From an uncultured Acidimicrobiaceae bacterium (GTDB taxonomy: Bacteria; Actinomycetota; Acidimicrobiia; Acidimicrobiales; RAAP-2): a DNA stretch of 64,000 nt. The notes below the pieces were generated by a model. The model was given only the letters and a program-made list of their open reading frames with translations. It was not told the origin of the DNA and made no database searches. Both the position numbers and the translations under genes were made by a program. Positions 7,606-45,697 of this stretch are shown piece by piece. The DNA lies in NCBI GenBank assembly GCA_963738545.1, contig CAVTXA010000004.1, positions 8,391-72,390 of the forward strand, given 5' to 3'. Within the stretch, counting starts at the first letter, position 1. The number at the start of each line of letters is the position of its first letter.

Positions 7606-9276
7606 CTACCGGCGCCGCCTCGGCGCACTCCGGCGGTTGAGTCGGGCGAACGTCCCGCGTTGCGCACGGTAGAGATCCGGGAAGGCGTTGAAGAGGTGAT
7701 CGTAGGTGGCCCGGCGGCCCGGATCCGGTCGGAACACGGTGTCCACGGGCACCAGCGCCGCCACCTCGGACGGCAGCACGGCCCCGAGGGCCATGGCGGC
7801 GATGAGGGCGGCGCCCCGCAGATTGGCCAGCACCGGTTGGCCGACCCGCTCGATGGTCCTGTCCATCACGTCGGCGTGGATCTGGCACCACAGGTCCGAC
7901 TGGGCCCCACCCCCGACCATCCGGAGAGGGTCGAGCCGTCGCTTGGCGAAGCGTTCGACCGCCTCGTGTAGCCACCGGTTGTTGAACGCCACACCCTCCA
8001 GGACCGCCCGCACCAGGTCGGCCCGGGCGACGGTGAGGGAGAGGTTGTGGAAGCCGGCGCGGGCGTGGCGGTCCTCCACCGGTGACCGCTCGCCGCGCAG
8101 CCACGGCGTGAAGATCACGCCCGACGAGCCCGGCCGGGCCTCCGCGGCCAGGGCGAGCGCCCGGCCGAAGTCGGGACGACCGTCGGCATCGAGGAGTCCC
8201 GGCACCACGCCGCACACCCAGTCGAGGCAGGCCCCACCGGTTTCGTGGTTGTCGGCGATCATGTACCCGCCGCCGCCCAGGCCCGGAACGCTGGCCACCT
8301 GGTGGAAGGCGTCGGTCTTCTTGAACGGCACCGGCGCCCCGATCCACGCGCTGGTGCTCACGGCCAGATGGGCCTGGTAGTCGAGTACGGCCCCCGCACC
8401 GCAGGCCGCCGAGTGGAGATCCGGCGTGCCGGCCACGACCGGCACGCCGGCCGGGAGGCCGAGCTCACGGGCCACCTCGGGACGGACGGTGCCGATGACG
8501 CTGCCGGTGCGATGGAGTGGCGGGAGTCGGGCGGGGTCGACACCGGAGCGGCCCACCAGCACCGGGTCGTAGTCGAGGACGTCGAGGCGGCGGTTGTCGG
8601 TGAGCCAGGCCCCGGCCATGGAGGCGTACGATGCCGCCGCCGCTCCCGTGAAGCACATGGACAGGTAGTCGACCGGCTCGAGGAACCACCTGGCAGCCCG
8701 GACAGGACGCGCCCCGGCAGAAGCCGGTGAGCCCGGAGCGGGATCCGGGGCCCCGGATGATCCCGCGGCCTCCGCCGCCTGCAGGTAGAGGATGTGCCCG
8801 ATGGGGTCGGCTCCCGAGGGGGAAGGGGCACCACCTGACCGCCGGATCCACGAGAGGGTGGTCACCGGCGCGTACCCGGCCGCCGGTCCGGCGATGACCG
8901 CACGGGAATAGGGCCTCCCCCGGGTGTCCATCCACAGGAGACACGGGCCTACGGGCTCGCCCGCGGCGTCGACGGGCACGGTGCTGGCCCACTGCCCGGT
9001 GACGCTGACCGCCAGCACCTGATCGGGCCGCACGACGCCTGAGCCCAGCCCCCGTCTCACCCCCTGACAGACCAGCGTCCACCACCGGGAGGCATCCTGG
9101 GTGGCGGCGTCGCCGTCCACCCGGGTGGCGAGGGATGCCTGCTCATGCCAGGCGATGACCCCGGTCATCGAGACCAGGCCGACCTTGAGCCCGCTGGTGC
9201 CCAGGTCAACCGCCAGAACGAACCTCTGATCCGCCGCTAGCTCCTGACCTGGGGCGTTCCACACGACGGCGTTCAT
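7606..9276 (-). CDS. FGGY-family carbohydrate kinase (xylulokinase-like)
   Basis: N-terminal 'LAVDLGTSGLKVGLV' and C-terminal 'GGGAQSDLWCQIHADV' are FGGY signatures. Confidence 0.8.
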   Translation of the reverse strand: MNAVVWNAPGQELAADQRFVLAVDLGTSGLKVGLVSMTGVIAWHEQASLATRVDGDAATQDASRWWTLVCQGVRRGLGSGVVRPDQVLAVSVTGQWASTVPVDAAGEPVGPCLLWMDTRGRPYSRAVIAGPAAGYAPVTTLSWIRRSGGAPSPSGADPIGHILYLQAAEAAGSSGAPDPAPGSPASAGARPVRAARWFLEPVDYLSMCFTGAAAASYASMAGAWLTDNRRLDVLDYDPVLVGRSGVDPARLPPLHRTGSVIGTVRPEVARELGLPAGVPVVAGTPDLHSAACGAGAVLDYQAHLAVSTSAWIGAPVPFKKTDAFHQVASVPGLGGGGYMIADNHETGGACLDWVCGVVPGLLDADGRPDFGRALALAAEARPGSSGVIFTPWLRGERSPVEDRHARAGFHNLSLTVARADLVRAVLEGVAFNNRWLHEAVERFAKRRLDPLRMVGGGAQSDLWCQIHADVMDRTIERVGQPVLANLRGAALIAAMALGAVLPSEVAALVPVDTVFRPDPGRRATYDHLFNAFPDLYRAQRGTFARLNRRSAPRRRR

Positions 9277-12631: not shown

Positions 12632-13583
12632 TCACGGGGCCCGTTGCGCCAGCTCGGCCGCCCAGTAGTCGGCCGGCGGAAGGGCACCGAACGGATTGGG
12701 CAGACCGGCGTCGGTGACGTAGACGTATCCGGCGCCCCGCTGGCGGCTGAGGTCCATGGCGTGCTCCATCTCGCCGGTGGAGATGGCCCCGTAGACGATG
12801 TGCCAGATCTGTTCGGGTCCGGCCGGCGTCCACGTCAGCGGCTCGAAGTCCTGACCCACGGCGTCGGGGGCGCCGGTGTAGTTGGCGTAGCTGCCCTCGA
12901 AGGTGACCAGGACATCGGCGGCCGCCGCGTAACAGCGCGGGACGGCGATCCCCGGGTTGAGCACCGTAACCGCACCGGGATCGGCCACCCGTAGACGGTC
13001 CCCGAGCGTCCGGTAGGCGTCGGCGTACCGGTTCGATCCGGCCGTCGGCCCACAGGCGCTGGTCGACTCGTCCAAGAAGATGCCACCGAGGTCGGACCCG
13101 TAGAACCGGTACCACGCATCGATGTCCGCTTGGATCTGCGATAGCCAGGCCTCGGGGCCGAACGCTCCCGAGCGCGTGGGCAGGCCGTCGGCGTGGGCGA
13201 ACGACGGGCTACCGAGGTAGCCCGTGTCCACATAGCCGAGCACTCGGCTCCCCGACGCATGGGCGCTGTGGATCACCGCCGCCCAGTCCGCATTGGGTTG
13301 TGTGCCGGGTCCATTGGCCACGTTGGCCACGACGATCCCGACCGCCCCGGGCGGTGACGCCGCCGAGCTGCTCCCACGAGGAGGCAGCGTGCACCGGATC
13401 GACATAGGCCGGCACGGCCAGACGCTGGACGACGGAGGGCGGGCCGGAGGCGGCGGTCGAGTGGTCGGCGATGGTCGGCGATGGTAGCAAGAGCCAGGCC
13501 ACGGCCACGGTGAGCGAGGCCACGACCACGGCCACGGTCACCACCAGTGCGGCCATGCCGAATGCGCTCCTGCTCCCGTGCAT
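12632..13583 (-). pseudogene. spherulin-4 family (GH135 / Sph3-type) secreted protein, split over two reading frames
   Basis: The N-terminal signal anchor plus 'LAVPAYVDPVHAASSWEQL' is in the frame of ORF 13209..13592. The rest ('GIVVANVANGPG..YVDTGY..GIFLDE..') is in the frame of ORF 12632..13405. The junction lies near 13340-13362 in a C/G run. The 952-nt length is not a multiple of 3. Confidence 0.6.
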
Positions 13584-33597: not shown

Positions 33598-34248
33598 ATG
33601 CACGTCTCTATGGACCCCTCCGCCGACGACACGACCGCTACCGTCGCCGCCACGGCCGGGGCCGTCCTCCCGGGGCCGGCCCGGTCCGATGACCGGGTGT
33701 GGAAGATCCTGGCCGCGGTGGCCGCCGTGGTCCTCGTCGGCTTCATCGTCTTCGTGGTGACCCGGCCCCGCCACCCCAGGGTGACGACCTTCCCGGCCAC
33801 GCCGCCAGCCACCCTGCCGCTGCACAGCACGGCCCCACCCTTCACCCTGCCCCGTCTCGGTGGTGGTCCCGCGGTCAGCCTCACCTCGACCCGGGGCACA
33901 CCGACCGTGGTGAACTTCTTCGCCTCGTGGTGCCCCGACTGCAAGGCAGAGCTGGCCGCCTTCGGGACCCTGGCCGCCCAGACGTCCGGGCGGATGGCCG
34001 TCATCGGCGTGGACTCGAACGACAACTCCGGGAGCGCGGCCCAGACCCTGCTGGCCGCGGCCAAGGCCACCTATCCGGTGGGCGTGGACCCCAACGCCAC
34101 CGTGGCCACCTCGTTTCAGATCGAGGCCCTGCCCGTGACCTACTTCCTTGACGCCCAGGGCCGGGTGGTGCACGTGTCCTTCGGAACCCAGACCCTGGCC
34201 GCGCTGGAGCACTGGAGCGCCGTGCTGACCGGCGGAGCCGCGGCATGA
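33598..34248 (+). CDS. membrane-anchored TlpA/ResA-like thiol-disulfide oxidoreductase
   Basis: TM anchor 'ILAAVAAVVLVGFIVFVV' and thioredoxin motif 'FFASWCPDCKAE'. Alternative starts at 33583 and 33610. Confidence 0.75.
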   Translation: MHVSMDPSADDTTATVAATAGAVLPGPARSDDRVWKILAAVAAVVLVGFIVFVVTRPRHPRVTTFPATPPATLPLHSTAPPFTLPRLGGGPAVSLTSTRGTPTVVNFFASWCPDCKAELAAFGTLAAQTSGRMAVIGVDSNDNSGSAAQTLLAAAKATYPVGVDPNATVATSFQIEALPVTYFLDAQGRVVHVSFGTQTLAALEHWSAVLTGGAAA

Positions 34249-35179
34249 GCCCCGAACCGATCGGCCCGGGCGACGGCGAGGGGGCCGTCGGGACCGAAGG
34301 GCGTACCCGCGTCGCCGGGCTGTCCGAGGCGGAGCGGGCCGCGGCCTTCACCTCCGGCCAGGTGCCGGTCGACCGGAAGGCCGCGCTGCGGGCCGGGAGC
34401 GTCCCCGTCCCCCGCCGGTTCGTGCTGTGGGTCGTCGGCGGCCTTCGCCGTCCTCGGGCTGGGCGGCCTGGCCGCCGAGCACTTCCTCGGCAATGCCGGG
34501 GTCGAGTCGGTCATCTCCACCCCCCTCACCACCCTGGCCGGGACCGGCACCACCCCACCGTCCACCCCCTCGAGCCCCGACCGGCCCGGCGGTGGGCGCC
34601 TCCCCGGCGGCGGTGATCGGACTCAGGACCCTGGCCCCGAACGTGCCCCCGGCGTTGCACCTGACCGACCAGCAGGGCACCCCCTGGACCCTCGGCGAGG
34701 TCCGGGGGAAGGTGGTGGTGGTCTCCTTCCTCAACGCCGAGTGCAACGACGTCTGCCCGGTCCTGGGGTCCGAGATCGTCCAGGCCGACCGTCTGCTCGG
34801 GTCCCGGGCGTCGTCGGTGGCCTTCGTCATCGTCAACACCGACCCCCTGGAGACCTCGCTGTCGATCACACCCCCCGTCCTCACCCAGACCGGCCTCGGC
34901 TCCCTCCCCAACGTCACGTTCCTCACCGGCCCGCTCGGTGACCTGAGCCGGGTGTGGAAGGCCTACGGTGTCACCGTGGCCCTGAGCAACATCACCCGGC
35001 TGGTCAGCCACAACGACGTCATGGAGTTCATCAACCCCTCGGGGCGGTTCGCCCTGCAGGCCACGCCCTTCGGCAATGAGGACAGCTTCGGTGCCTACAG
35101 CCTCGACCCGACCACGATCCACACCTTCGCCGAGGGCGTGGCCGCGGCCGCCCGTGGCCTGATCCGGAGCCAGCCGTGA
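34245..35179 (+). pseudogene. SCO1/SenC-family copper chaperone, with coding sense spread over three frames
   Basis: The ATG at 34245 overlaps the TlpA stop (ATGA). 'RRFVLWVVGG' (frame 0) continues as 'AFAVLGLGGLAAEHF' (frame 1). 'AAVIGLRTLAPNVPPALHLTDQQG..FLNAECNDVCP..SHND' follows in frame 2. The 935-nt length is not a multiple of 3. Confidence 0.6.
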
Positions 35180-35850
35180 CCGACACCACCCCGGAGGATC
35201 CGCTCCCCAACGATCCCTTCACCCTCGAGGGCATCATCGCCCAGGAGCCGGTGAAGCCCGTCTGGTACCGGCGGGGATGGGTGCTGGTGGCCGTGGCCGT
35301 CACCGTGCTCATCGTGGCCTCGGTGCTGGTGGACCTGCCCACCAACACCACACCGGCCACCGACACCGCCGACCAGGTGGCGGTGATGAAGCAGATCAAC
35401 TCGGCCATCAGCGGCTGCTCCTACGCCGCCAAGGAGACCTTCACCATCTACCAGGACCTCCAGGCCCACTCGCTCAGCGCCGCCGACGTGGCCCTGACCC
35501 CGTCCATGCTCCGTGACGACCAGTCGGCCTGCTCGTTCACCAGCAGCTCCATCTACGACCTGTCGAACGTCGAGGGCACCGGCACACCGGCGGGCAAGGA
35601 CATCAACCAGGTGGTGAACGTGGCCACCATCTGGGCCACCTCCGACGCCCTGGCCGCCATCGAGGACATCCAGACCCTCAGCACCGACCCGGACAACGCC
35701 GCCGCCCGGGCCGACCTGGCCAAGCGCGAGACCGCCTTGGCCCAGGACCGGGCCAAGGCCGACGGCTTCGTGACGTCGGCCGACCACATCCTGCACGCCA
35801 CCCTGCCCCGGCCCGACCTTCCCAACCTGCCGACCCCCGCCGGCAGCTGA
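35176..35850 (+). CDS. hypothetical single-pass membrane protein
   Basis: The GTG start overlaps the SCO1 stop (GTGA). TM 'WVLVAVAVTVLIVASVLV'. No recognisable family. Confidence 0.5.
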   Translation: MTDTTPEDPLPNDPFTLEGIIAQEPVKPVWYRRGWVLVAVAVTVLIVASVLVDLPTNTTPATDTADQVAVMKQINSAISGCSYAAKETFTIYQDLQAHSLSAADVALTPSMLRDDQSACSFTSSSIYDLSNVEGTGTPAGKDINQVVNVATIWATSDALAAIEDIQTLSTDPDNAAARADLAKRETALAQDRAKADGFVTSADHILHATLPRPDLPNLPTPAGS

Positions 35851-35857
35851 CCCGGGC

Positions 35858-36733
35858 TCACGTCGTGGTCTGACCACCCGGCCCGGTACGCCCCCGCAAC
35901 CGCTCCACCCGGAGCAGGTGGTGGAGCTCCTCGTCGGGATCCTCCTCGGACTGGAGCCACTGGATCAGGTTCCAGAAGACCACGGGGATGAACGCGCACC
36001 CCGAGATGAACCACATCATCCCGGTGCTCAGCTGCTGGTCGGCCGAGAGGCTGAGGCCGGTACCGGCGTGGTGGGTGAAGGCGTGGTACCACGAGGCGTG
36101 GGACAGCCCGACGAGGTAGGCCAGGACCCAGATGGCCCACATGGACACGGCGGCCAGCGCCACCCGGTGGGGACGGGACAGCCGGGGCACCAGCGGCGGG
36201 GACTCCACCAGCTCCAGCCACAGCCCGGTCCCGAGCGCCACCAGGGTCACCGCCTCCACCACCAGCAGCCACGGGTGCCGGATCAGGGCGTCGACGGTGG
36301 CCGGGAATCCTCCAGAGGATGGCCCCGGCCAGATACAGGACGAAGAAGCAGGCGCTCCGGAGCGCCTCGGGGTGGCGACGACGGCCGTGGGCCAACCGGT
36401 CCACGGGCCCGGGACCGGAAGCTGACGCGTGTCCCGGGCCACCGGCTGCATGGGGGAGACTCCTCAGTCCTCGGTCACCGGTCCGTCACGGGAGGCCAGG
36501 CCCAACCGTCGCCACGGAGCGCCCACGGCCACCAGGGCCGGGATGACCACCCCCAGGATCGAGTACTGGATGGCCTCGGCGAACTCGTAGCGCCGGGCCT
36601 GGGTGGCCAGGGGCGGGACCAGGCACAGGATCAGGAGGACGATCGCCACGCCGAGGACCACGTCCCGGAAGGCCCGGTGGGTGTCTGCGTCGAGCGGCTG
36701 CGGGGACCGGTCTGACTCGGCCCCGGTGGTCAC
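35858..36733 (-). pseudogene. caa3-type CtaG-like cytochrome oxidase assembly factor, interrupted (in-frame TGA plus an out-of-frame segment)
   Basis: Collinear with the intact paralog at 41527..42447. 'GAPWRRLGL' ends at the TGA at 36464-36466. 'VDRLAHGRRRHPEALRSACFFVLYLAGAILWRIP' is in another frame (36306-36404). 'ATVDALIRHPW..WFISGCAFIPVVFW' returns to the first frame. Confidence 0.6.
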
Positions 36734-36846
36734 CGGTTGGTGCGCCGTTGGAAGAATCCCCACAAGAGCACCACGAACAGGGTGCCGAGGGGAATGGCCA
36801 GGGTAAGTACCTGGGGCCCGATGAAGGTGTCTGTGGCAAGAGTCAC
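36730..36846 (-). CDS. 38-aa single-TM ORF (VTLATDTFIGPQVLTLAIPLGTLFVVLLWGFFQRRTNR) between ctaE and the CtaG-like gene; too short for the ORF track
   Basis: The GTG start has GAGG about 12 nt upstream. Its TGA overlaps a GTG start of the next gene (GTGA). The position matches that of small oxidase subunits. Confidence 0.35.
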   Translation of the reverse strand: MTLATDTFIGPQVLTLAIPLGTLFVVLLWGFFQRRTNR

Positions 36847-36920
36847 TGGCCGACCAACCTCGCTGTCATTCGCTCATGAACATGGTACCCGGACGGCCGT
36901 TGCGTCAGCCACCACCCGGA

Positions 36921-37598
36921 TCAGATGAGATAGAAGAACGTCCAGAACAGGCCACTGACGACGGCGATGAACCCGAAGAAGTAGGTGCACGCCTCGACGT
37001 TGGCCCGGAACAGCTGGGCCGAGGGCCCGCTCGACGACGAAGGATCCCCGTCGTCGGCGTCGATGCGCTTCAGCCGGTGGCTGAGGGCCAGGTTGGTCTC
37101 GAGCCAGTAGAAGCCGGCGAAGAGCAGCATGAGGTTCATGACGGCCCAGCCGATGAAGCACGAGGCATAGCCGCTGGAGCCGGGGAAGAACGGCAGCTGG
37201 GTGAGTTGCCAGATCTGGAGGCCGAAGGCCACCACCATGCCCAGCACGGCCACCCAACCGCTGACCTGCCAGTCGAGGAGGGAGTCCCGGCGCATGCGCC
37301 ACTGCCCGTAGATGACCAGGAGGGTGGAGGCCAGCACCACGGCGAAGATGGCCCAGCCGATACCGGTGGGGGCGGTGATCTGCTTGGGACGCCACAGGTC
37401 GCCGGAGTTGGCCGACTTCAGGTAGAAGTAGGCGAAGGCCAGCGAGGCGAACAGGAAGGTGAACATCCCGATCAGCAGACGGCCTCCGGTCCAGTAGGAG
37501 CCCACCGCCGCCCGGAGTTCGAACTCCCGTTCCTCGGGGGTCTCGGTGAACAGCGCTGGCTTGTCGGCAGTATCGGTCACCGCGTTGTCTCCACTCAT
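36921..37598 (-). CDS. ctaE: cytochrome c oxidase subunit III
   Basis: Five-helix layout with 'FYLKSAN', 'GFYWLETN' and 'TYFFGFIAVVSGLFW'. The start overlaps the ctaD stop (ATGA). Confidence 0.8.
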   Translation of the reverse strand: MSGDNAVTDTADKPALFTETPEEREFELRAAVGSYWTGGRLLIGMFTFLFASLAFAYFYLKSANSGDLWRPKQITAPTGIGWAIFAVVLASTLLVIYGQWRMRRDSLLDWQVSGWVAVLGMVVAFGLQIWQLTQLPFFPGSSGYASCFIGWAVMNLMLLFAGFYWLETNLALSHRLKRIDADDGDPSSSSGPSAQLFRANVEACTYFFGFIAVVSGLFWTFFYLI

Positions 37599-39587
37599 TG
37601 GGCCGGCGGGCGGGGGTCTTCGGCCACGCTGGCCGGGGAGGATGCTCCGGCGGCCACCAGGGTGCCGTCACCCAGGTCGGCGACCGCGGGGGCGTCGTAC
37701 TCACCGTAGTGATAGGGATCGCTGAGCACGACGGGGATGCGCTCGAAGTTGTAGTACGGCACCGGGGTGGGCGTCTGCCACTCGAGGCCCAACGAGTCCC
37801 AGGGATTGGCCGGCGACGGCGTGGGCTTGATGAAGATCGACCACACGAAGTTGGCCACGAACACGAGGAACGAGGCGCCGAGGATGAAGGCGCTGACCGA
37901 GGCGAAGTCGTTCAGCCCCTGGAGATTGTGGGCGTACTCGAAGACCCGTCGGGGCTGGCCCAGCAGGCCGATGAGGAACATGGGGAAGAAGGTCAGGTTG
38001 AAGAAGATGAACATGAGCCAGAAGTGGATCTTCCCGAGCTTCTTGTTCATGGTCTTGCCCGGTCATCTTCGGGCAGCCAGTAGTAGAGGCCACCGAAGAA
38101 GGCGAAGATCAGACCGCCCATGATCGTGTAGTGGAAGTGGGCCAGCACGAAGAAGCTCCCGTGCACGGTGACGTTCACCGGCACGTCGGAGAGGAAGACC
38201 CCGGTCACCCCGCCGATCAGGAAGTTGAAGAACACGGCGAGGCAGAAGAGCATCGGCACTTCGAACCGTATCTTCGCCTTGTACAGGGTTCCCATCCCCA
38301 CGAGGAAGATGAAGCCGGTCGGGATGGAGATGAGCTCGGTGGTGAGCATGAACAACGGGCGCATGTCCGGGTTGATCCCGCTCTGGAAGAGATGGTGCTG
38401 CCAGACGAAGAAGGAAAGCAGGGCCACGCCCACCATCCCGGCCGCCGCCACCTTGTAGGCGAAGAGCGGCTTTCGGGTGAACACGGGAAGCAGCTCGGCC
38501 ACGATCCCGAATCCGGGCAGCGCCATGATGTACACCTCGGGGTGGCCGAAGAACCAGAACAGGTTCTGCCACAGGAACGAGCTGCCGCCGTGCTCGGTGA
38601 CGTAGAAGGCGGTCTGGGCGGTGTGGTCGAGGATGCCGAACAGCCCCGCGGCCACCAGGGTGGGCGTGGCCAGGGTGAGCAGGGCGCAGGTGGCCAGGAT
38701 GGACCAGACGAAGATCGGGATGCGGCTCCAGGTCATGCCCGGGGCCCGGTAGTTGATGATCGTCACGGCCAGGTTGAAGCCGGCCGTCATCATGCCCAGG
38801 CCGATGACGGCGAAGCCGACCAGGTAGGACATCATGGCCACGCCGGCCTGGGTCTGGAGGGGGGCATACCCGGTCCAACCCGTGGGGAAGCCGCCGTAGA
38901 AGAGGGCGGACATGATGACGAGGTAGCCGGCGGTGAAGACCCAGAAGCTGAAGGCCTCCACGCGGGGGAAGGCCGTCCGGCGGGCCCCGATCATGAGGGG
39001 CACCAGCCAGTTGCCCAAGGGACCGACGATCACCGAGGTGGCCATCATCATCATGACCGTGCCGTGCTCGCTCACGACGGAGATGTAGGTACCGGGGCCG
39101 AAGACGTGGCTGGTGGGCGAGAGGAGCTCGGTGCGGATGGCCATGGCCAGCAGGCCACCGGTGAACAGGAAGAGCAGGACGCCGATGACGTACTGCATGC
39201 CGACCACCTTGTGGTCGGCGGTGTAGCGCAGGTACCGGGTCCAGCTGGTCGACTCGTAGTCGGGCCGCGGCTCCATGCCCACCATCTTGGCCAGCGGGTA
39301 GTTGAGGGCCCCGATGCCCAGCAGCCAACCGATGACCCCGAGCGAGCAGACCGGCGGTGACGGCGATCGAGTTGGCGCCACTGGTTGGAGCACGTTGGGT
39401 AGCCGCTGGCCACCACGTTGCCGAGCCAGTGGCCGAGCAGGTAGCCACCCACGGCCAGGATGGCGGCGGTGCCCAGGTGCTGGCTGAACCAGCCCGGTCG
39501 TGACGGGAGCCCCTGGAACCCGCCCAGCACGGGCGGCGTGGGATCGGGGTAGACGACTTCGGTTTCGCGCTCGGCGGCAAGGGTCAT
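37595..39587 (-). pseudogene. ctaD: cytochrome c oxidase subunit I, with sense distributed over 4 frame segments
   Basis: The central 448-aa ORF carries 'GHPEVYI', 'WQHHLF' and 'HFHYTIMGG'. The N-terminal part (from the ATG at 39587) and the C-terminal part ('MNKKLGKIHFW...') are in other frames. 'KMTG' is encoded out of frame at 38060-38071. The 1993-nt length is not a multiple of 3. Confidence 0.8.
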
Positions 39588-39609
39588 AGCGGGATCGTCA
39601 ACTTTCTCA

Positions 39610-40519
39610 TCATCCGGAGGGAGTCGGCTTTCCGGGGGTGGCGCCGTAGACCTCGGCATTGCTGTAGGGGTCCACGTTGTCGGGGTAGTACCCGCCGTCG
39701 GCACCGTTGGCATCAGGTACGTAGGTCAGGGCGTAGGGCGGGAGGAGCGCTGGTGTTCTTGGCCGTGCGCAGCTGGGTCAGACGTGGCCCAGGTCTCGAA
39801 GGACGACTTGGACACCACGCGTGCCGTAGTTGAACATGGACCCGTGCCAGATCCCGCACAACTCGCTGCAGCGCACGGTGATGTTGCCGGTCTGGCGGGT
39901 CGTGGTGAAGGCCACGTTGTCCTGCTGGGGGTTGGCGTCGGCCTTGACGCTCAACTGGTAGGCCCAGAAGCTGTGGATGACGTCCAACGAGGTCACGTGG
40001 AACTCGATGGTGGTGTCGACCGGGAGCACCAGCTGGCTGGTCTCGAAGCCACCGAACGTCGGGTACCGGTAGGTGAACTTCCACTGCTGGCCGATCACCT
40101 GCACGGGCAGGATGTGGGCCGACGTCGGGGTCCAGATGGGGTTGGGACCCTCACCGCCACCCGAGCCCGCGCCGGTGATGAGGCGCACCGTCCCGAAGGT
40201 GAAGAGGCCCAGCACGATGACCGTGGTAGTCACGATCCAGCCGACCTGCACACCCAGGTTGCGTCCGGGCCGCCGGGCCGCCCACCGGCTCGGGCACCCC
40301 GGGGCGGGAGGACCGCCACGTGATGACGCAGTAGGCCAGGTACACCCACACGGCGATCAGCACCGGGAGGGCGATCATCAAGAGGATGTTGAAGTCGAAC
40401 TGGTTGTCCGACGCCGAGGAGGTCATGGTCCCCGGTGGCACGTGGGGCCCGACCAGGGTGTAGAAGAGCACGTCGGCGATGATGGCCAGGACCAGCCAGA
40501 TGGTCACCATCCGCCACAT
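39610..40519 (-). pseudogene. ctaC: cytochrome c oxidase subunit II (CuA), with multiple frame changes
   Basis: CuA motif 'CSELCGIWHGSM'. The N-terminal TM hairpin is in ORF 40151..40519. The C-terminal sense passes through all three frames ('RVVSKSSFETWATS', 'QLRTAKNTSA', 'LLPPYALTYVPDANG..PSG*'). The 910-nt length is not a multiple of 3. Confidence 0.75.
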
Positions 40520-40613
40520 GTGCCGGGGCTGCGCGCTCCCCGGTTCGGCCCGACCGAGGTGCGGCCGCCGAGCTGCCGACCGCCCTGGTTGTCCGTGGTG
40601 CCGCTGGTCTCGC

Positions 40614-41319
40614 TCACGCCACGACGTCCAGGAAGCCGCCCATGTAGCCCAGCGTGCTCATCGGACCCCCGTTTCCGTACAAGTAGCCACATCCACAGGG
40701 GACGAAGCACTGCCAGCTGTAGCTACCGGGCGCCGGGCGTCACGAAGGAGGACTTCGATGATGTTGGGGCGAAGTTCGTCGAGGCACGGAGCGGAGCTGC
40801 AGGTGTTGTTGGCGTTGCCGTTGACGCCCGACCAGAGGGCACGTTGATGACTCAGGGCCGGCACGGTGAAGGTGTGCCCGACGCCATATTGCCGGTGTTG
40901 GAGTCGTAGTACCGAGATCGGCTTGCCGTTGAGAACCTCGTGGCCCTGAGGGTGCCCTGCACCCGACCCCAGTTCTGGTTGCGCAGCGGGCTGCCCGAGT
41001 CGTACTGGTCGATGGTCAGGTTGATGCGGGTGTGGGCGGGAAGCTGCCAGATGGTCGAGTGGACCCACTGGCCCTGCGGGTTCTGGACCAGATAGGACAC
41101 CCAGACCGGTTGGAAGCCGTAACGTCCGATGGCCGGGACCGTCTGCACGGTCAGTTGGACGGGCGCACCCGGCGGGCGCGACGCGGTGAAGCCACGGTGG
41201 CGCGGCTGGGGCAGGAGGAACCCGACCACGCCCCACACGGCGAAGCCGATGACTACGACGAGGAGACCGAGAACAACGGTGAGCCTTCCCCCGAACGACA
41301 TGTTGCACTCCTCTGCCAT
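40614..41319 (-). pseudogene. membrane-anchored cupredoxin-like protein upstream of ctaC, with sense alternating between frames
   Basis: Protein-like strings alternate between frames: 'GHEVLNGKPISV', 'YYDSNTGNMA', 'VGHTFTVPAL', 'WSGVNGNANNTCSSAPC', 'SSFVTPGA' and 'PGSYSWQCFVPCGCGYLYGNGGPMSTLGYMGGFLDVVA*'. The family call is weak. Confidence 0.45.
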
Positions 41320-41421
41320 GTTGGCAATCCAGCGCCAGCGGTGTGACCCGGCCGACCCCCCGAGGGTCCCGGTCCAGGGATAACGGTCGACCTTTTGTCA
41401 CATTTCTGTAAGGCAGTGCTG

Positions 41422-41450
41422 ACAGTATGCCGAACGGAAGGCCCGGTCAA
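41422..41450 (-). promoter_or_regulatory. sigma-70-like promoter TTGACC-17nt-TACTGT upstream of the oxidase operon
   Basis: Read on the minus strand in an AT-rich patch about 100 nt upstream of the first gene. Confidence 0.35.
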
Positions 41451-41526
41451 GCATCAATTGCCGGCCCGGCCCGGGCGGGTTGGCCGACGTCCCCCGGAAC
41501 CCGCGGCCCCGTTGGGGATCGGCTGT

Positions 41527-42447
41527 TCAGGCGTGGTCGCCCGCCCCCGCCCGCTGGGGCCTCATCTCGGCCACCGAAGGGGGTGGGGTGCGGTGGGCGA
41601 GGCGCTCGAGTACCCCCGACAGCGAGCCTTCCTGGTCGACGGCCCGCTTGATGATGACCACCAGTGCGGGTACCGCCCAGAAGTCGCCGCACACCCACAG
41701 GATGGCCGCTCCGATCTGCTGGTCGGCGAACGGGGACAGGGTCACGCCCGGGAGGTGGGCGTACACCGAGTACCAGCTGGAGGCGGAGAAGATGGAGAGG
41801 GACATGGCGAGGATGAACATCACGATGTTGGTGCTGATGACCGCTCCGGCCTGCCAGATCGGGCTGGCCTTCAGCCGGAACGGGTGGGACGGGATGATCT
41901 GAAGCCAGAAGAGCACCCCGGTGACGAAGAAGCTGCCGTGCATCAGCCAGATGTGCGCGGTCTGGTTGCGCTCCGAGTAGTCGAAGAGGGCGGGGAAGTG
42001 CCACACCACCATCACCAGGTTGAACGAGATCAGCGCGAACCACGGGCTGGTCACCACCCGGCCCACCGGCCGGAGCACCCGTGACCACGACCCCAGCATG
42101 AGAAAGCGGCCCACCTTCCGCCGGGCCCCGACGGGGAGGGCGAACAGCAGGGGGATCCAGGGTGCACCCAGCACGATCAGGATCGGCGCGTAGAAGGCGA
42201 TGAGCAGGTGCTCGAGCATGTGGACGAAGAAGTAGTCGCTCGCCCAATAGTCGATGGGCGAGTCGATGGCTAACAGGAGCACGCCGAGGCCGCCGTAGAA
42301 GGCCAGCGACCGGAGCCGACGGCGCCGGGAGCGGCTCGGGTCGGATCGGTGTCGGAGCCGGGACAGACCGATCTCGTGGGCTACGACCAGCACGGCGACG
42401 ACGATGAGGAAGGGATCGAACGACCAGTTCTGGGTGATGTAGTTCAC
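41527..42447 (-). CDS. caa3-type CtaG-like cytochrome oxidase assembly factor (intact paralog)
   Basis: 306 aa and uninterrupted. '[21 protein letters not shown]', '[11 protein letters not shown]', '[17 protein letters not shown]', '[10 protein letters not shown]'. Confidence 0.75.
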
Positions 42448-42584: not shown

Positions 42585-43817
42585 TCAACCGGATGATCCG
42601 TACTGGATGGGGACGCTCAGCGACTGAGTCCGCACCCACCCGGTGCCAGCCAAGGCGTAGACCACCAGTGTGGACTGCTGGGACACGAGGGCGTCGTACC
42701 CGCCTTCGGGGGTGCCCGTGACCGAGGCGGTATCCGCCGGTAGGGGCGCCAGGGACTGCCACTCGGTGCCCGATGCGCCGATGTCCGATGCGGACCGCGA
42801 GCCGCCGGTCCCCTTGGTGGCGACGACGAAGCCGCCGCCCACCGTCGTCCCGGTGGAGACCAGGACCCCTCCGGCGAGGGGCAGTCCGGCCGACACCGAC
42901 CAGGTGCGGAGTCCGTTGGAGCTCCACAGGGCCACCACCCGGGCCGAAGCCCCTTCGCCGGCAACCACCAGGGCGCCGGTGGCGCTCGCCGTCTGGTCCA
43001 GGCGGATCACTTCGGTGGGTCCGCTGCCACCACCGGGGATGCCCGGTCCCACCGACTCCCATCCGGTGGGGGTCGAGGCGAAGATCCCGGCCTGGCCCCC
43101 CCGGCTGCACGACGTGCCGACCAGGGGCGTGCCCGACCCGTCATAGGCCACGGCGGTGAGCCCCGTGAGGTGACAGCCACGGGGGCCAGGGAGCGAGGCC
43201 AACGCGTTGGCGCTGGTCACCGACGTCCACGTCGAGAGGTCCTGGTCGTTGCCCAGGACGGTTCCAGCGCTGGTCCGGAGAAGGGCCAGCGAGTGTCCGT
43301 CGCCGTTCTCGGCCAACGCCTCGGGCACCGCCGCCATCCCGGCCGGCAGGATGCCCGAGGACCAGGTGGATCCCTCGTCGGCGCTGCGGGCCAAGGGGGA
43401 GAACCGGAGCGCGTTGGTCGGCTCGAACCCGGCCAGCACCGAGGTCATTCCGGTGGCGGCGACCAGGCCCCCGTTGCTGGCCACGCCGGGAGGGGTGGCC
43501 AGCTCCCAGGGGGAACCACCGCTCAGGGCCAAGAGCTGCCAGAAGGTGTTGAGGGGATCGCTGAGATGGCCCATGGCCAGGGTGGCCCACGTCGTGGAAC
43601 CGACGGTCGAGCTGGTCAGGGGAATCGACGGCAGGCCGCCGGCGGTGCCGAGGGCGGGATCGGCGGGCGGGGAGCTGCCGGACGACGAGCAACCGGCCAG
43701 GACGCCGGCGGCCAGGGCTACGACCAGCGGGGCGGCCAGCCTCCGACGAGCCGAGGACCGGCGCCGACCGGGTGCACGGGGGCGTGGTCCGCCCGTTCCG
43801 GGCCGACGACCGGTCAC
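42585..43817 (-). CDS. lipoprotein with BNR/Asp-box beta-propeller-type repeats (Ycf48/sialidase-like fold)
   Basis: Arg-rich N-terminus and lipobox 'LAGC'. Asp-box 'SADEGSTW' plus degenerate copies ('DLSTW', 'NGLRTW'). Confidence 0.65.
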   Translation of the reverse strand: MTGRRPGTGGPRPRAPGRRRSSARRRLAAPLVVALAAGVLAGCSSSGSSPPADPALGTAGGLPSIPLTSSTVGSTTWATLAMGHLSDPLNTFWQLLALSGGSPWELATPPGVASNGGLVAATGMTSVLAGFEPTNALRFSPLARSADEGSTWSSGILPAGMAAVPEALAENGDGHSLALLRTSAGTVLGNDQDLSTWTSVTSANALASLPGPRGCHLTGLTAVAYDGSGTPLVGTSCSRGGQAGIFASTPTGWESVGPGIPGGGSGPTEVIRLDQTASATGALVVAGEGASARVVALWSSNGLRTWSVSAGLPLAGGVLVSTGTTVGGGFVVATKGTGGSRSASDIGASGTEWQSLAPLPADTASVTGTPEGGYDALVSQQSTLVVYALAGTGWVRTQSLSVPIQYGSSG

Positions 43818-45697
43818 GAGTGGGCGATGTGCTGGACCTGGCTGGTGAGCAGGGCCGAGAACGAGGACTGTGACGGCGCCGAGCCGTTGCCGGGATCGGA
43901 GCTGAGGATCTCACGGGTGTGTCCGGACTTGTCGATGATGTAGACGATGTCGCCGTGGGCGATCATGGCCCCGGCCGGCGTGACCTGGATCTGGACCCCG
44001 TAGTCGTTCCAGACCGCGTGCAGCTGGTTCAGCGACCCCGTGAGGTAGGACCAGTTGGCCAGATGGTCGAGACCCTCCTGCTTGTCGAAGGCCGTGGTCG
44101 CCACCGTGGAGGTGTACAGGGGGTTGGCCACCACCGCCACCATCTCCACCGGCCCCGCCGTCGAACCCAGCATCTGGTCGGCCAGCCGCAACTCTTGGGC
44201 GATCAGCGGGCAGTCCGACGTGCAGACCGGGTCGAGAAAGGTGAGCACCACGGTGCGACCGGCGAGGGACGAGAGCGACACGGTGTGCCCGTGCTGGTCG
44301 GTGAGGGTAAACGGGGCCGCCGGCACGTCGACCAGGTTGGGCGAGCCGTTGGCCGCCTCGGTCAGGATGGGGTCGGCATTGGGGTTGGTGGCGGCCACGG
44401 CCATGGGGGCGGCACCCACCAGGACGATCCCCAACGCCCCGATGGCCAGGAGGGATCGGAGCAGATAGCTAGGGCTGAGACGGTCCAGCCAACCCGGCTG
44501 GGACGGCTCGGGTTGCGCGGGTTGCGCGGGTTGCGGCCTGACGGTCTCCCCGGCGGTCGGCGTCTCCAGTTCGGTGACCGTCGCCCGTGTCGGCAGCCTC
44601 ACCATGGCCAGATAGGCACCCCCGAAGATGAGGGCCATGGGGATCATGGAGTTGGGGTCGGTCCCCACACCCCCGAAGAACCCGAAGTCCTGGATCAGGA
44701 CCCAGACGGCCAGGCACAGCACAGCCCCTGTGGCCAGGCCGACCCGCACGATCCGAAGGTTGGTGCTGAAGAAGCTGAGGCCGATCCCGATGAGCAGGAC
44801 CACCACGACGAAGTTCACCGCCCATGCGTGCCCGGCCTGGAAGTCGGCGAAGGACCGGACCCACGAGGCCAGGACGGAAGGCTGGGACACCTGGGACATC
44901 TGCCGCACCATGGCCGTGAGGTTCCCCGGGGTGGCCGACGCCGGGACCTGTCCCGACCAGAACCCCCGACCGGGCCACGCCTGCAGGATCCCCATGCCCA
45001 CGAAGAGCACGCCCATCCCCCGCAGCACGCCCTTCCCCAGGCGGGGGGTCTCCCACGAGGCGTCGGGCAGGGCCACCAGCAGCCCGGCCACGGCGTAGAA
45101 CAGGACCGCCCCGGGGGAGCCGAACAGCCAGCTGCTGCCGTGCCCGAAGATGCCACCGAAGGCCTCGCCGAACACCCAGACCACGAGGCCCCACCCCAGG
45201 CTCACCGCACCCGCCGCCCGGGACCAGTAGCCCCGTGGTGCCACCAGCAAGAAGAGGCCCACACCGACCTGGATCCACACCGTGGCCGCGGCCGCCGACA
45301 CCGGGTGATCGGACCAGATGGTGGTGCCCGAGTTGACCAGGCTCTGGACCCAACCCGGAGACGAGGAGGCCGCAGGGGTGATGACCGAGCCGGGCAGGCC
45401 CAGCGGCATGGCCGCCTGCAGTTGCAAGAGGCCGTCGAACAGCCACAGGAAGCCGAAGGCGAGACGGAGGAACCGGCGGGCCGGCGGCTCGGGGTACTCC
45501 CACGTCTCCACCACCGGGTCGTCTGCCGTGCCCGCGGCCACCGCCCGTCGGTAGTGCACGGTCCGGGCCACGTTCCAGGCCACCGCCAGGAGTACCCCGA
45601 TGACGACCAGGATCAGGAGCTGGTGGTCGAGGGTGGACCGGAAGGCGGCGGCAATGGTGGGGTTGTTGGACTGGAGTCCATGCCCCATTCCTTGCAT
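43814..45697 (-). CDS. fusion protein: N-terminal polytopic membrane domain (about 400 aa) plus C-terminal SCO1/SenC thioredoxin-fold domain
   Basis: The C-terminal part has 'FTLTDQHGHTVSL..VVLTFLDPVCTSDCP' (CxxxC) and 'AHGDIVYIID'. The N-terminal part has about 9-10 TM segments. Linker 'PQPAQPAQPEPSQP'. A 4-nt overlap joins it to the next gene. Confidence 0.7.
   Translation of the reverse strand: MQGMGHGLQSNNPTIAAAFRSTLDHQLLILVVIGVLLAVAWNVARTVHYRRAVAAGTADDPVVETWEYPEPPARRFLRLAFGFLWLFDGLLQLQAAMPLGLPGSVITPAASSSPGWVQSLVNSGTTIWSDHPVSAAAATVWIQVGVGLFLLVAPRGYWSRAAGAVSLGWGLVVWVFGEAFGGIFGHGSSWLFGSPGAVLFYAVAGLLVALPDASWETPRLGKGVLRGMGVLFVGMGILQAWPGRGFWSGQVPASATPGNLTAMVRQMSQVSQPSVLASWVRSFADFQAGHAWAVNFVVVVLLIGIGLSFFSTNLRIVRVGLATGAVLCLAVWVLIQDFGFFGGVGTDPNSMIPMALIFGGAYLAMVRLPTRATVTELETPTAGETVRPQPAQPAQPEPSQPGWLDRLSPSYLLRSLLAIGALGIVLVGAAPMAVAATNPNADPILTEAANGSPNLVDVPAAPFTLTDQHGHTVSLSSLAGRTVVLTFLDPVCTSDCPLIAQELRLADQMLGSTAGPVEMVAVVANPLYTSTVATTAFDKQEGLDHLANWSYLTGSLNQLHAVWNDYGVQIQVTPAGAMIAHGDIVYIIDKSGHTREILSSDPGNGSAPSQSSFSALLTSQVQHIAHS

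Follow-up and report, generated by a model that had tools for sequence, protein, structure and literature searches.

Are the frame breaks that run through a cytochrome oxidase gene cluster of an uncultured Acidimicrobiaceae bacterium mutations of the organism, or errors in its assembled sequence? The cluster lies in the window, a 64,000-nucleotide stretch of contig C4 (C4:8391-72390) of assembly GCA_963738545.1, and five of its genes (SCO1, CtaG-like, ctaD, ctaC and a gene read as cupredoxin-like) are broken by single-base changes of frame. A first, sequence-only reading of the window had left a choice between a locally low-quality assembly with homopolymer indels (insertions or deletions) and a decay of the aa3 oxidase operon that would be very recent and selective. 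We find that the single-base frame breaks are real in the deposited sequence, and that they are very probably a local consensus artefact of the assembly rather than mutations of the organism. Similar patches of damage occur throughout the genome and at contig ends, the broken genes retain the signature of purifying selection, and reads of the same strain are lost in two of the patches.

The assembly comprises 4.29 Mb in 9 contigs with 70% guanine plus cytosine (GC), a completeness of 92% and a contamination of 2%. This profile of size, contig number and completeness fits a contiguous metagenome bin, and sequences related to the window are present in peat and soil metagenomes.

Frame breaks and selection in the oxidase cluster

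The window was compared by tblastn to the genes called in syntenic regions of four relatives (G004, G005, G008 and G009), a comparison with sister genomes that the sequence-only reading had itself proposed. Each of the seven cluster genes is a single open frame in all four relatives. The patch and the cluster genes of the window are as follows.

34350-40950: low-quality patch of about 6.6 kb, which contains every frame-breaking single-base indel on the indel map
34245-35179, plus strand: SCO1/SenC-like copper chaperone gene (ortholog matches PF02630), with extra bases near 34437 and 34574
35176-35850, plus strand: orf224, a conserved, intact gene of 224 amino acids with a single-frame match to its orthologs
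35867-36763, minus strand: CtaG-like (Caa3_CtaG) assembly factor gene (ortholog matches PF09678)
36924-37598, minus strand: intact open reading frame (ORF) of 225 amino acids in the subunit III position, with single-frame matches of 68-88% identity to relatives
37595-39587, minus strand: ctaD, subunit I of an A-type heme-copper oxidase, with extra bases at 38058/38060, 38070, 39343 and 39378-39394
39613-40710, minus strand: ctaC, subunit II, with extra bases at 39749, 39780 and 39819 that jointly restore the frame, and another at 40262
40617-41301, minus strand: upstream gene of 225-250 amino acids ('cupredoxin-like'), with seven extra-base events at 40732-40910 and a missing base at 40937

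Some 20 single extra bases and one missing base lie at 34.4-40.95 kb of the window. The frame changes first read in the five broken genes were confirmed by tblastn frames, by MAFFT alignment with the four relatives and by the GC content of third codon positions (GC3). Matches to the relatives' proteins pass through frames 3/1/2 in the SCO1-like gene (34263-35167, plus strand), -3/-1/-2/-1 in ctaD (39587-37598, minus strand), -2/-1/-2 in ctaC (40710-39613, minus strand) and -2/-3 in the cupredoxin-like gene (41301-40617, minus strand); the intact 662-amino-acid orthologs of ctaD share 90-96% identity with it. In the GC3 plot the phase switches repeatedly within genes across 34.2-41.3 kb. MAFFT places 17 single extra bases unique to the window between 34437 and 40910 (34437, 34574, 36301, 38058, 38070, 39343, 39394, 39749, 39780, 39819, 40262, 40732, 40756, 40827, 40840, 40850 and 40910), together with a 2-base extra at 40886 and one base missing at 40937. 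Comparison to a closer Illumina contig added events at 36306, 36450 (2 bases), 36463 and 36471 in the CtaG-like gene, and at 39378 and 39380. In the CtaG-like gene the indels at about 36301/36306 (+1), 36450 (+2), 36463 (-1) and 36471 (+1) create a local out-of-frame stretch with a stop; the GC3 phase is disturbed at 36280-36460 and the ORFs split at 36451/36464.

The length of ctaD, noted earlier as not being a multiple of three, is 1993 nt in the window and 1989 nt in the relatives, which fits four extra bases, and the PF00115 match of the window gene is split into two. The ctaD core (38070-39343) and the ORF called ctaE (36924-37598) are uninterrupted, as had been stated. The neighbouring genes had been described as clean, and all of those having orthologs in the relatives do give single-frame tblastn matches. 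An extra T at 41314 is genuine, since an Illumina contig matches 41264-41400 with 0 differences.

The indels in the patch are mostly single insertions and are often sub-clustered. The earlier view that most shifts fit one extra base therefore holds, but of the several lost bases that it placed at 40.7-41.0 kb we find one (40937). Its statement that almost all sites lie in short C/G runs is weak for a genome of this GC content, as many sites fall outside homopolymer runs of 3 or more; for the same reason, an error model based on homopolymers only was rejected.

In their substitutions the cox genes bear no sign of relaxed constraint, and purifying selection is intact. Relative to Illumina contigs at least 97% alike, ctaD carries 27 substitutions, of which 24 are synonymous and 3 nonsynonymous, with 23 at third codon positions. 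For the amino-acid comparison the window was read in the frame of the intact orthologs, with the inserted columns unique to it removed. Lineage-specific changes at positions where the other four genomes agree then number 55 in the window, compared to 65 in G008, 31 in G004, 127 in G005 and 119 in G009. The earlier remark that the amino-acid sense is well preserved is thus borne out against intact relatives (31-127 changes), and the sole in-frame stop in the relatives' frame falls where the CtaG-like gene is locally shifted. About 20 indels without relaxed constraint do not resemble gene decay.

Short-read contigs from other samples also lack extra bases at some of the sites. In each of two Illumina peat metagenomes, an 81-nt contig spans 38027-38109 with 0 mismatches and with neither of the extra bases at 38060 and 38070. 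Against the same set of Illumina contigs, 34 indel rows were counted in the locus versus 4 in a 7.4-kb flank.

Frame changes across the genome and loss of same-strain reads

Frame changes were sought over the whole genome with a 7-state Viterbi frame tracker, for which a codon log-odds model had been trained on 831 long ORFs. A candidate was defined as a same-strand frame switch after which the former frame remains open for 8 or more further codons. This gave 357 candidates in 4.29 Mb. Candidates were validated against 0.5 Mb of the relatives' DNA by asking whether both halves fall in one open frame of a relative; of the 15 that could be tested, 12 were true and 3 were not. Two other approaches were dropped. 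The relatives' stop-to-stop ORFs, used as whole-genome tblastn queries, produced false junctions from shadow-frame and upstream-extension matches, and the reverse test was used in their place; a count of coding segments that do not end at a stop had a background of about 2.5 per 5 kb, and the strict filter was kept.

The candidates are clumped (variance/mean of 2.8), with 20 7-kb bins holding at least 4 versus 1.8 expected, and the top 5% of bins contain 42% of all candidates. Contig ends are enriched 3.5-fold (p = 4e-7). In all, about 15 patches of 1.5-20 kb each were recognized, and about 3% of the genome length lies within error-dense patches. Patches other than that of the oxidase cluster include the following.

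C8:397.9-412.5 kb
C7:1132-1151 kb
C7:1167-1187.5 kb
C7:214.6-227.8 kb
C7:462-477 kb
The starts of C1 and C3

When frame segments in these other patches are stitched together, single Pfam domains span 3-7 segments. Genes broken in this manner include mdh, a fatty-acid desaturase, nitronate monooxygenase (NMO), cysN/cysC and a T2SSE ATPase, as well as GH92, dxs, ilvB (acetolactate synthase large subunit), TldD/PmbA and a luciferase-like (LLM) oxidoreductase. The assembly's only DXP_synthase_N match is split between two frames. A viable cell that carried all of these as true pseudogenes is unlikely. The mdh patch shows similar single-base disagreement with Illumina contigs, in both directions.

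Four shallow Illumina runs from one 2024 soil study yielded pieces of 99-100% identity to the window flanks, many of them free of differences over 151-343 nt, and these runs were used to follow the flanking strain into the patches. For the cox patch, run-bins of runs X21, X25 and X26 were scored as occupied at an identity of at least 98% in the left flank and in the patch, excluding the bin of universally conserved words at 38530-38574. None of 27 run-bins was occupied inside the patch, versus 26 of 54 in the left flank. At the C8 patch, with all four runs, 39 of 72 run-bins were occupied as far as C8:397,952 and 4 of 48 past this point, where the frameshift patch starts. The few pieces of 98-99% identity that do fall in the cox patch differ from it at third codon positions, which points to a natural but different haplotype and not to random noise. 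The loss of flank-matching reads suggests that another haplotype, with poor support, was assembled in these stretches. As a test for an insertion/deletion polymorphism, the loose ends of short-read contigs at the border of the patch were searched for in the genome, and no match was found.

Two tracker calls in the window lie outside the oxidase cluster. One, at 7634, was rejected as the normal junction of an FGGY kinase gene and an S15 peptidase gene, with no frameshift. The other, at 13342-13562 on the minus strand, lies just upstream of a Spherulin4-family gene (12632-13405); the 73-amino-acid piece upstream of that gene has no family match, and the call could represent a single frameshift or a separate small ORF.

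Weighing the explanations

In the reading that we propose, the assembly is accurate over most of its length, and single-base indels are dense in some 15 or more stretches and at several contig ends. Within the patches, the assembler's path may leave the well-supported strain for another haplotype, or the supporting reads may be very few. Consensus building and polishing would there keep indel errors like those of raw reads, at about 0.3%. Mixing of alleles from co-occurring strains may worsen the errors and give rise to the insertion bias and the sub-clusters. The sequencing platform, the low read depth and the strain switch are each what we infer. Long-read metagenome bins are documented to carry indel and frameshift errors that vary with coverage (PMC9262707). 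Of the earlier explanation by a low-quality assembly with homopolymer indels, the local assembly error is retained, given the roughly 15 other patches, the intact selection and the Illumina contigs that lack extra bases at some of the sites; the emphasis on homopolymers is not.

Several points weigh against an assembly artefact. No source reads were found in public runs (the best word share was 0.26, and there was no nanopore-labelled run). The indels of the patch are nearly all insertions and often lie outside homopolymers, unlike the profile that textbooks give for nanopore errors. The tracker itself is noisy, with a precision of about 80% on a small validation set, and insensitive: of about 20 events in the cox locus it picked up only 3. 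The Illumina contigs that cover the patch come from other samples, represent strains 1-7% different and cover some sites only; they show that close relatives are intact and do not show the sequenced strain itself.

A very recent, selective pseudogenisation of the oxidase operon in the sequenced strain, with reliance on a second heme-copper oxidase, would draw on the negative search for source reads. It would also draw on the clean genes next to the operon, and on a second COX1 gene, intact at C3:64285-65622 in a 597-amino-acid open frame, which could make the loss tolerable. A look in the genome for another terminal oxidase had been suggested by the sequence-only reading. Cytochrome bd subunit I (PF01654), which would have meant a bd oxidase as a further back-up, was not found in the assembly at its completeness of 92%. 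Equal damage in about 15 unrelated patches, which takes in the only copy of dxs along with ilvB, mdh and cysNC, shows no preference for the operon. Some 20 indels have accumulated with no excess of nonsynonymous or nonsense changes, and all four close relatives keep the operon intact. The selective decay of the aa3 operon that had been put forward is therefore not upheld, and we regard such pseudogenisation as very improbable.

The vanishing of same-strain short reads exactly within two patches, and the third-position differences from the 98-99% contigs, would be expected if the patches were real recombination tracts from a divergent strain. In that case the other, natural haplotype would carry real inactivating indels, acquired for example by uptake of damaged environmental DNA or through local error-prone, indel-prone repair, and genes including the oxidase operon would be inactivated patch by patch. 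The enrichment at contig ends points instead to a technical cause. It is also implausible that a viable cell would have essential single-copy genes such as dxs and ilvB inactivated, and damage by indels only, together with substitutions under purifying selection, misfits a mutational process. Real tracts of this kind are thus, in our judgment, a slight possibility at best. Programmed recoding, in which translational frameshifting or transcript editing would restore the frames, has nothing for it beyond the well-preserved amino-acid sense and is effectively refuted by some 20 sites with no shared motif, by relatives that encode the same proteins in one frame and by the same pattern in unrelated genes and at contig ends.

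An assembly artefact is therefore the explanation that we retain, and its main value is as a quality warning on a species-representative genome. In annotation and metabolic reconstruction the patches will lead to spurious pseudogenes and to gene calls in fragments, among them the oxidase, dxs, ilvB, mdh and cysNC. The coincidence of patches with the loss of same-strain short reads can serve to diagnose stretches of contiguous metagenome bins that are strain-chimeric and poorly polished. Short of a contradiction by the source reads, the locus offers no new biology.

The oxidase cluster and comparison with known systems

Beneath the damage lies a cytochrome oxidase cluster of A-type (aa3-like) that looks functional and ordinary. 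The gene order is upstream gene, ctaC, ctaD, 225-amino-acid ORF and CtaG-like gene, followed by the convergent orf224 and SCO1. The COX1 (PF00115) and COX2 (PF00116) genes are adjacent, with CtaG and SCO1 nearby, as in an A-type oxidase operon. Orthologs in the relatives measure 225-250 amino acids for the upstream gene, 358-363 for ctaC, 662 for ctaD, 225-227 for the ORF in the subunit III position, 276-303 for the CtaG-like gene and 225-226 for orf224. The second intact COX1 elsewhere in the genome makes the window cluster look like a divergent second A-type oxidase.

CtaD orthologs (L016:1941-3929) carry about 120 residues before the COX1 domain and score below the NCBIfam equivalog cut-offs (556 vs 671 bits). 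Their closest solved chains are subunit 1 of cytochrome c oxidase in 8hcr, 6adq and 7q21 (E-values of 1e-116 to 1e-122). The ctaC ortholog matches PF00116 and TIGR02866; the matches of the cluster to TIGR02891 and TIGR02866 are both below the cut-offs. A ctaD ortholog in the relative G006, an assembly of 30 contigs (G006:C6:117354-119337), switches frame near residues 590-607, possibly through a similar assembly error in a further contiguous bin.

Three of the genes are without a profile match. The 225-amino-acid ORF matches neither COX3 in Pfam or NCBIfam nor any PDB chain, so the name ctaE follows from its position alone; it could be a subunit III that has diverged strongly, or a different small membrane subunit. 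No Pfam, NCBIfam or PDB match was obtained for the cupredoxin-like gene, and none in Pfam or NCBIfam for orf224. Two further features lie just beyond the cluster.

41422-41450, minus strand: promoter-like element TTGACC, 17 nt, TACTGT, read directly in the sequence
41530-42447, minus strand: intact Caa3_CtaG gene in the clean flank (PF09678, E-value 9e-48), with a single-frame match to 306-amino-acid orthologs

The promoter had been called good. The element is present, but a consensus promoter scan of 41250-41600 reported none, the TTGACC/TACTGT pair being under its threshold. Just beyond the patch, an intact 627-amino-acid protein with a C-terminal SCO1/SenC domain is encoded at 43817-45697 on the minus strand. 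Oxidase assembly factors are unusually abundant in the region, with PF09678 and PF02630 each occurring twice.

The cluster resembles the actinobacterial aa3 operon (ctaC/ctaD/ctaE, CtaG, SCO1) in its COX1 and COX2 domains and its adjacent Caa3_CtaG and SCO1/SenC genes. It differs in that the 662-amino-acid CtaD lies below the equivalog cut-offs, and the ORF in the subunit III position and the upstream gene are without a profile.

In the reductive pseudogenisation of Mycobacterium leprae many genes are disrupted in frame, a likeness to the genome of the window. Unlike that decay, there is here no relaxed selection, no excess of nonsense changes and no larger deletions, and the damage occurs only in patches and at contig ends.

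The closest parallel is with the indel and frameshift consensus errors of long-read genome and metagenome assemblies, for which IDEEL-type tests are in use (PMC9262707; proovframe preprint 10.1101/2021.08.23.457338). As with those errors, single-base indels here fragment conserved genes, depend on local support and are enriched at contig ends and in patches, and identical or near-identical short-read contigs from other samples lack them at some of the sites. Unlike those errors, the damage is not even but concentrated in discrete patches of 1.5-20 kb, the cox patch consists mostly of insertions that often lie outside long homopolymers, and where the patches lie the sequence departs from the strain matching their flanks.

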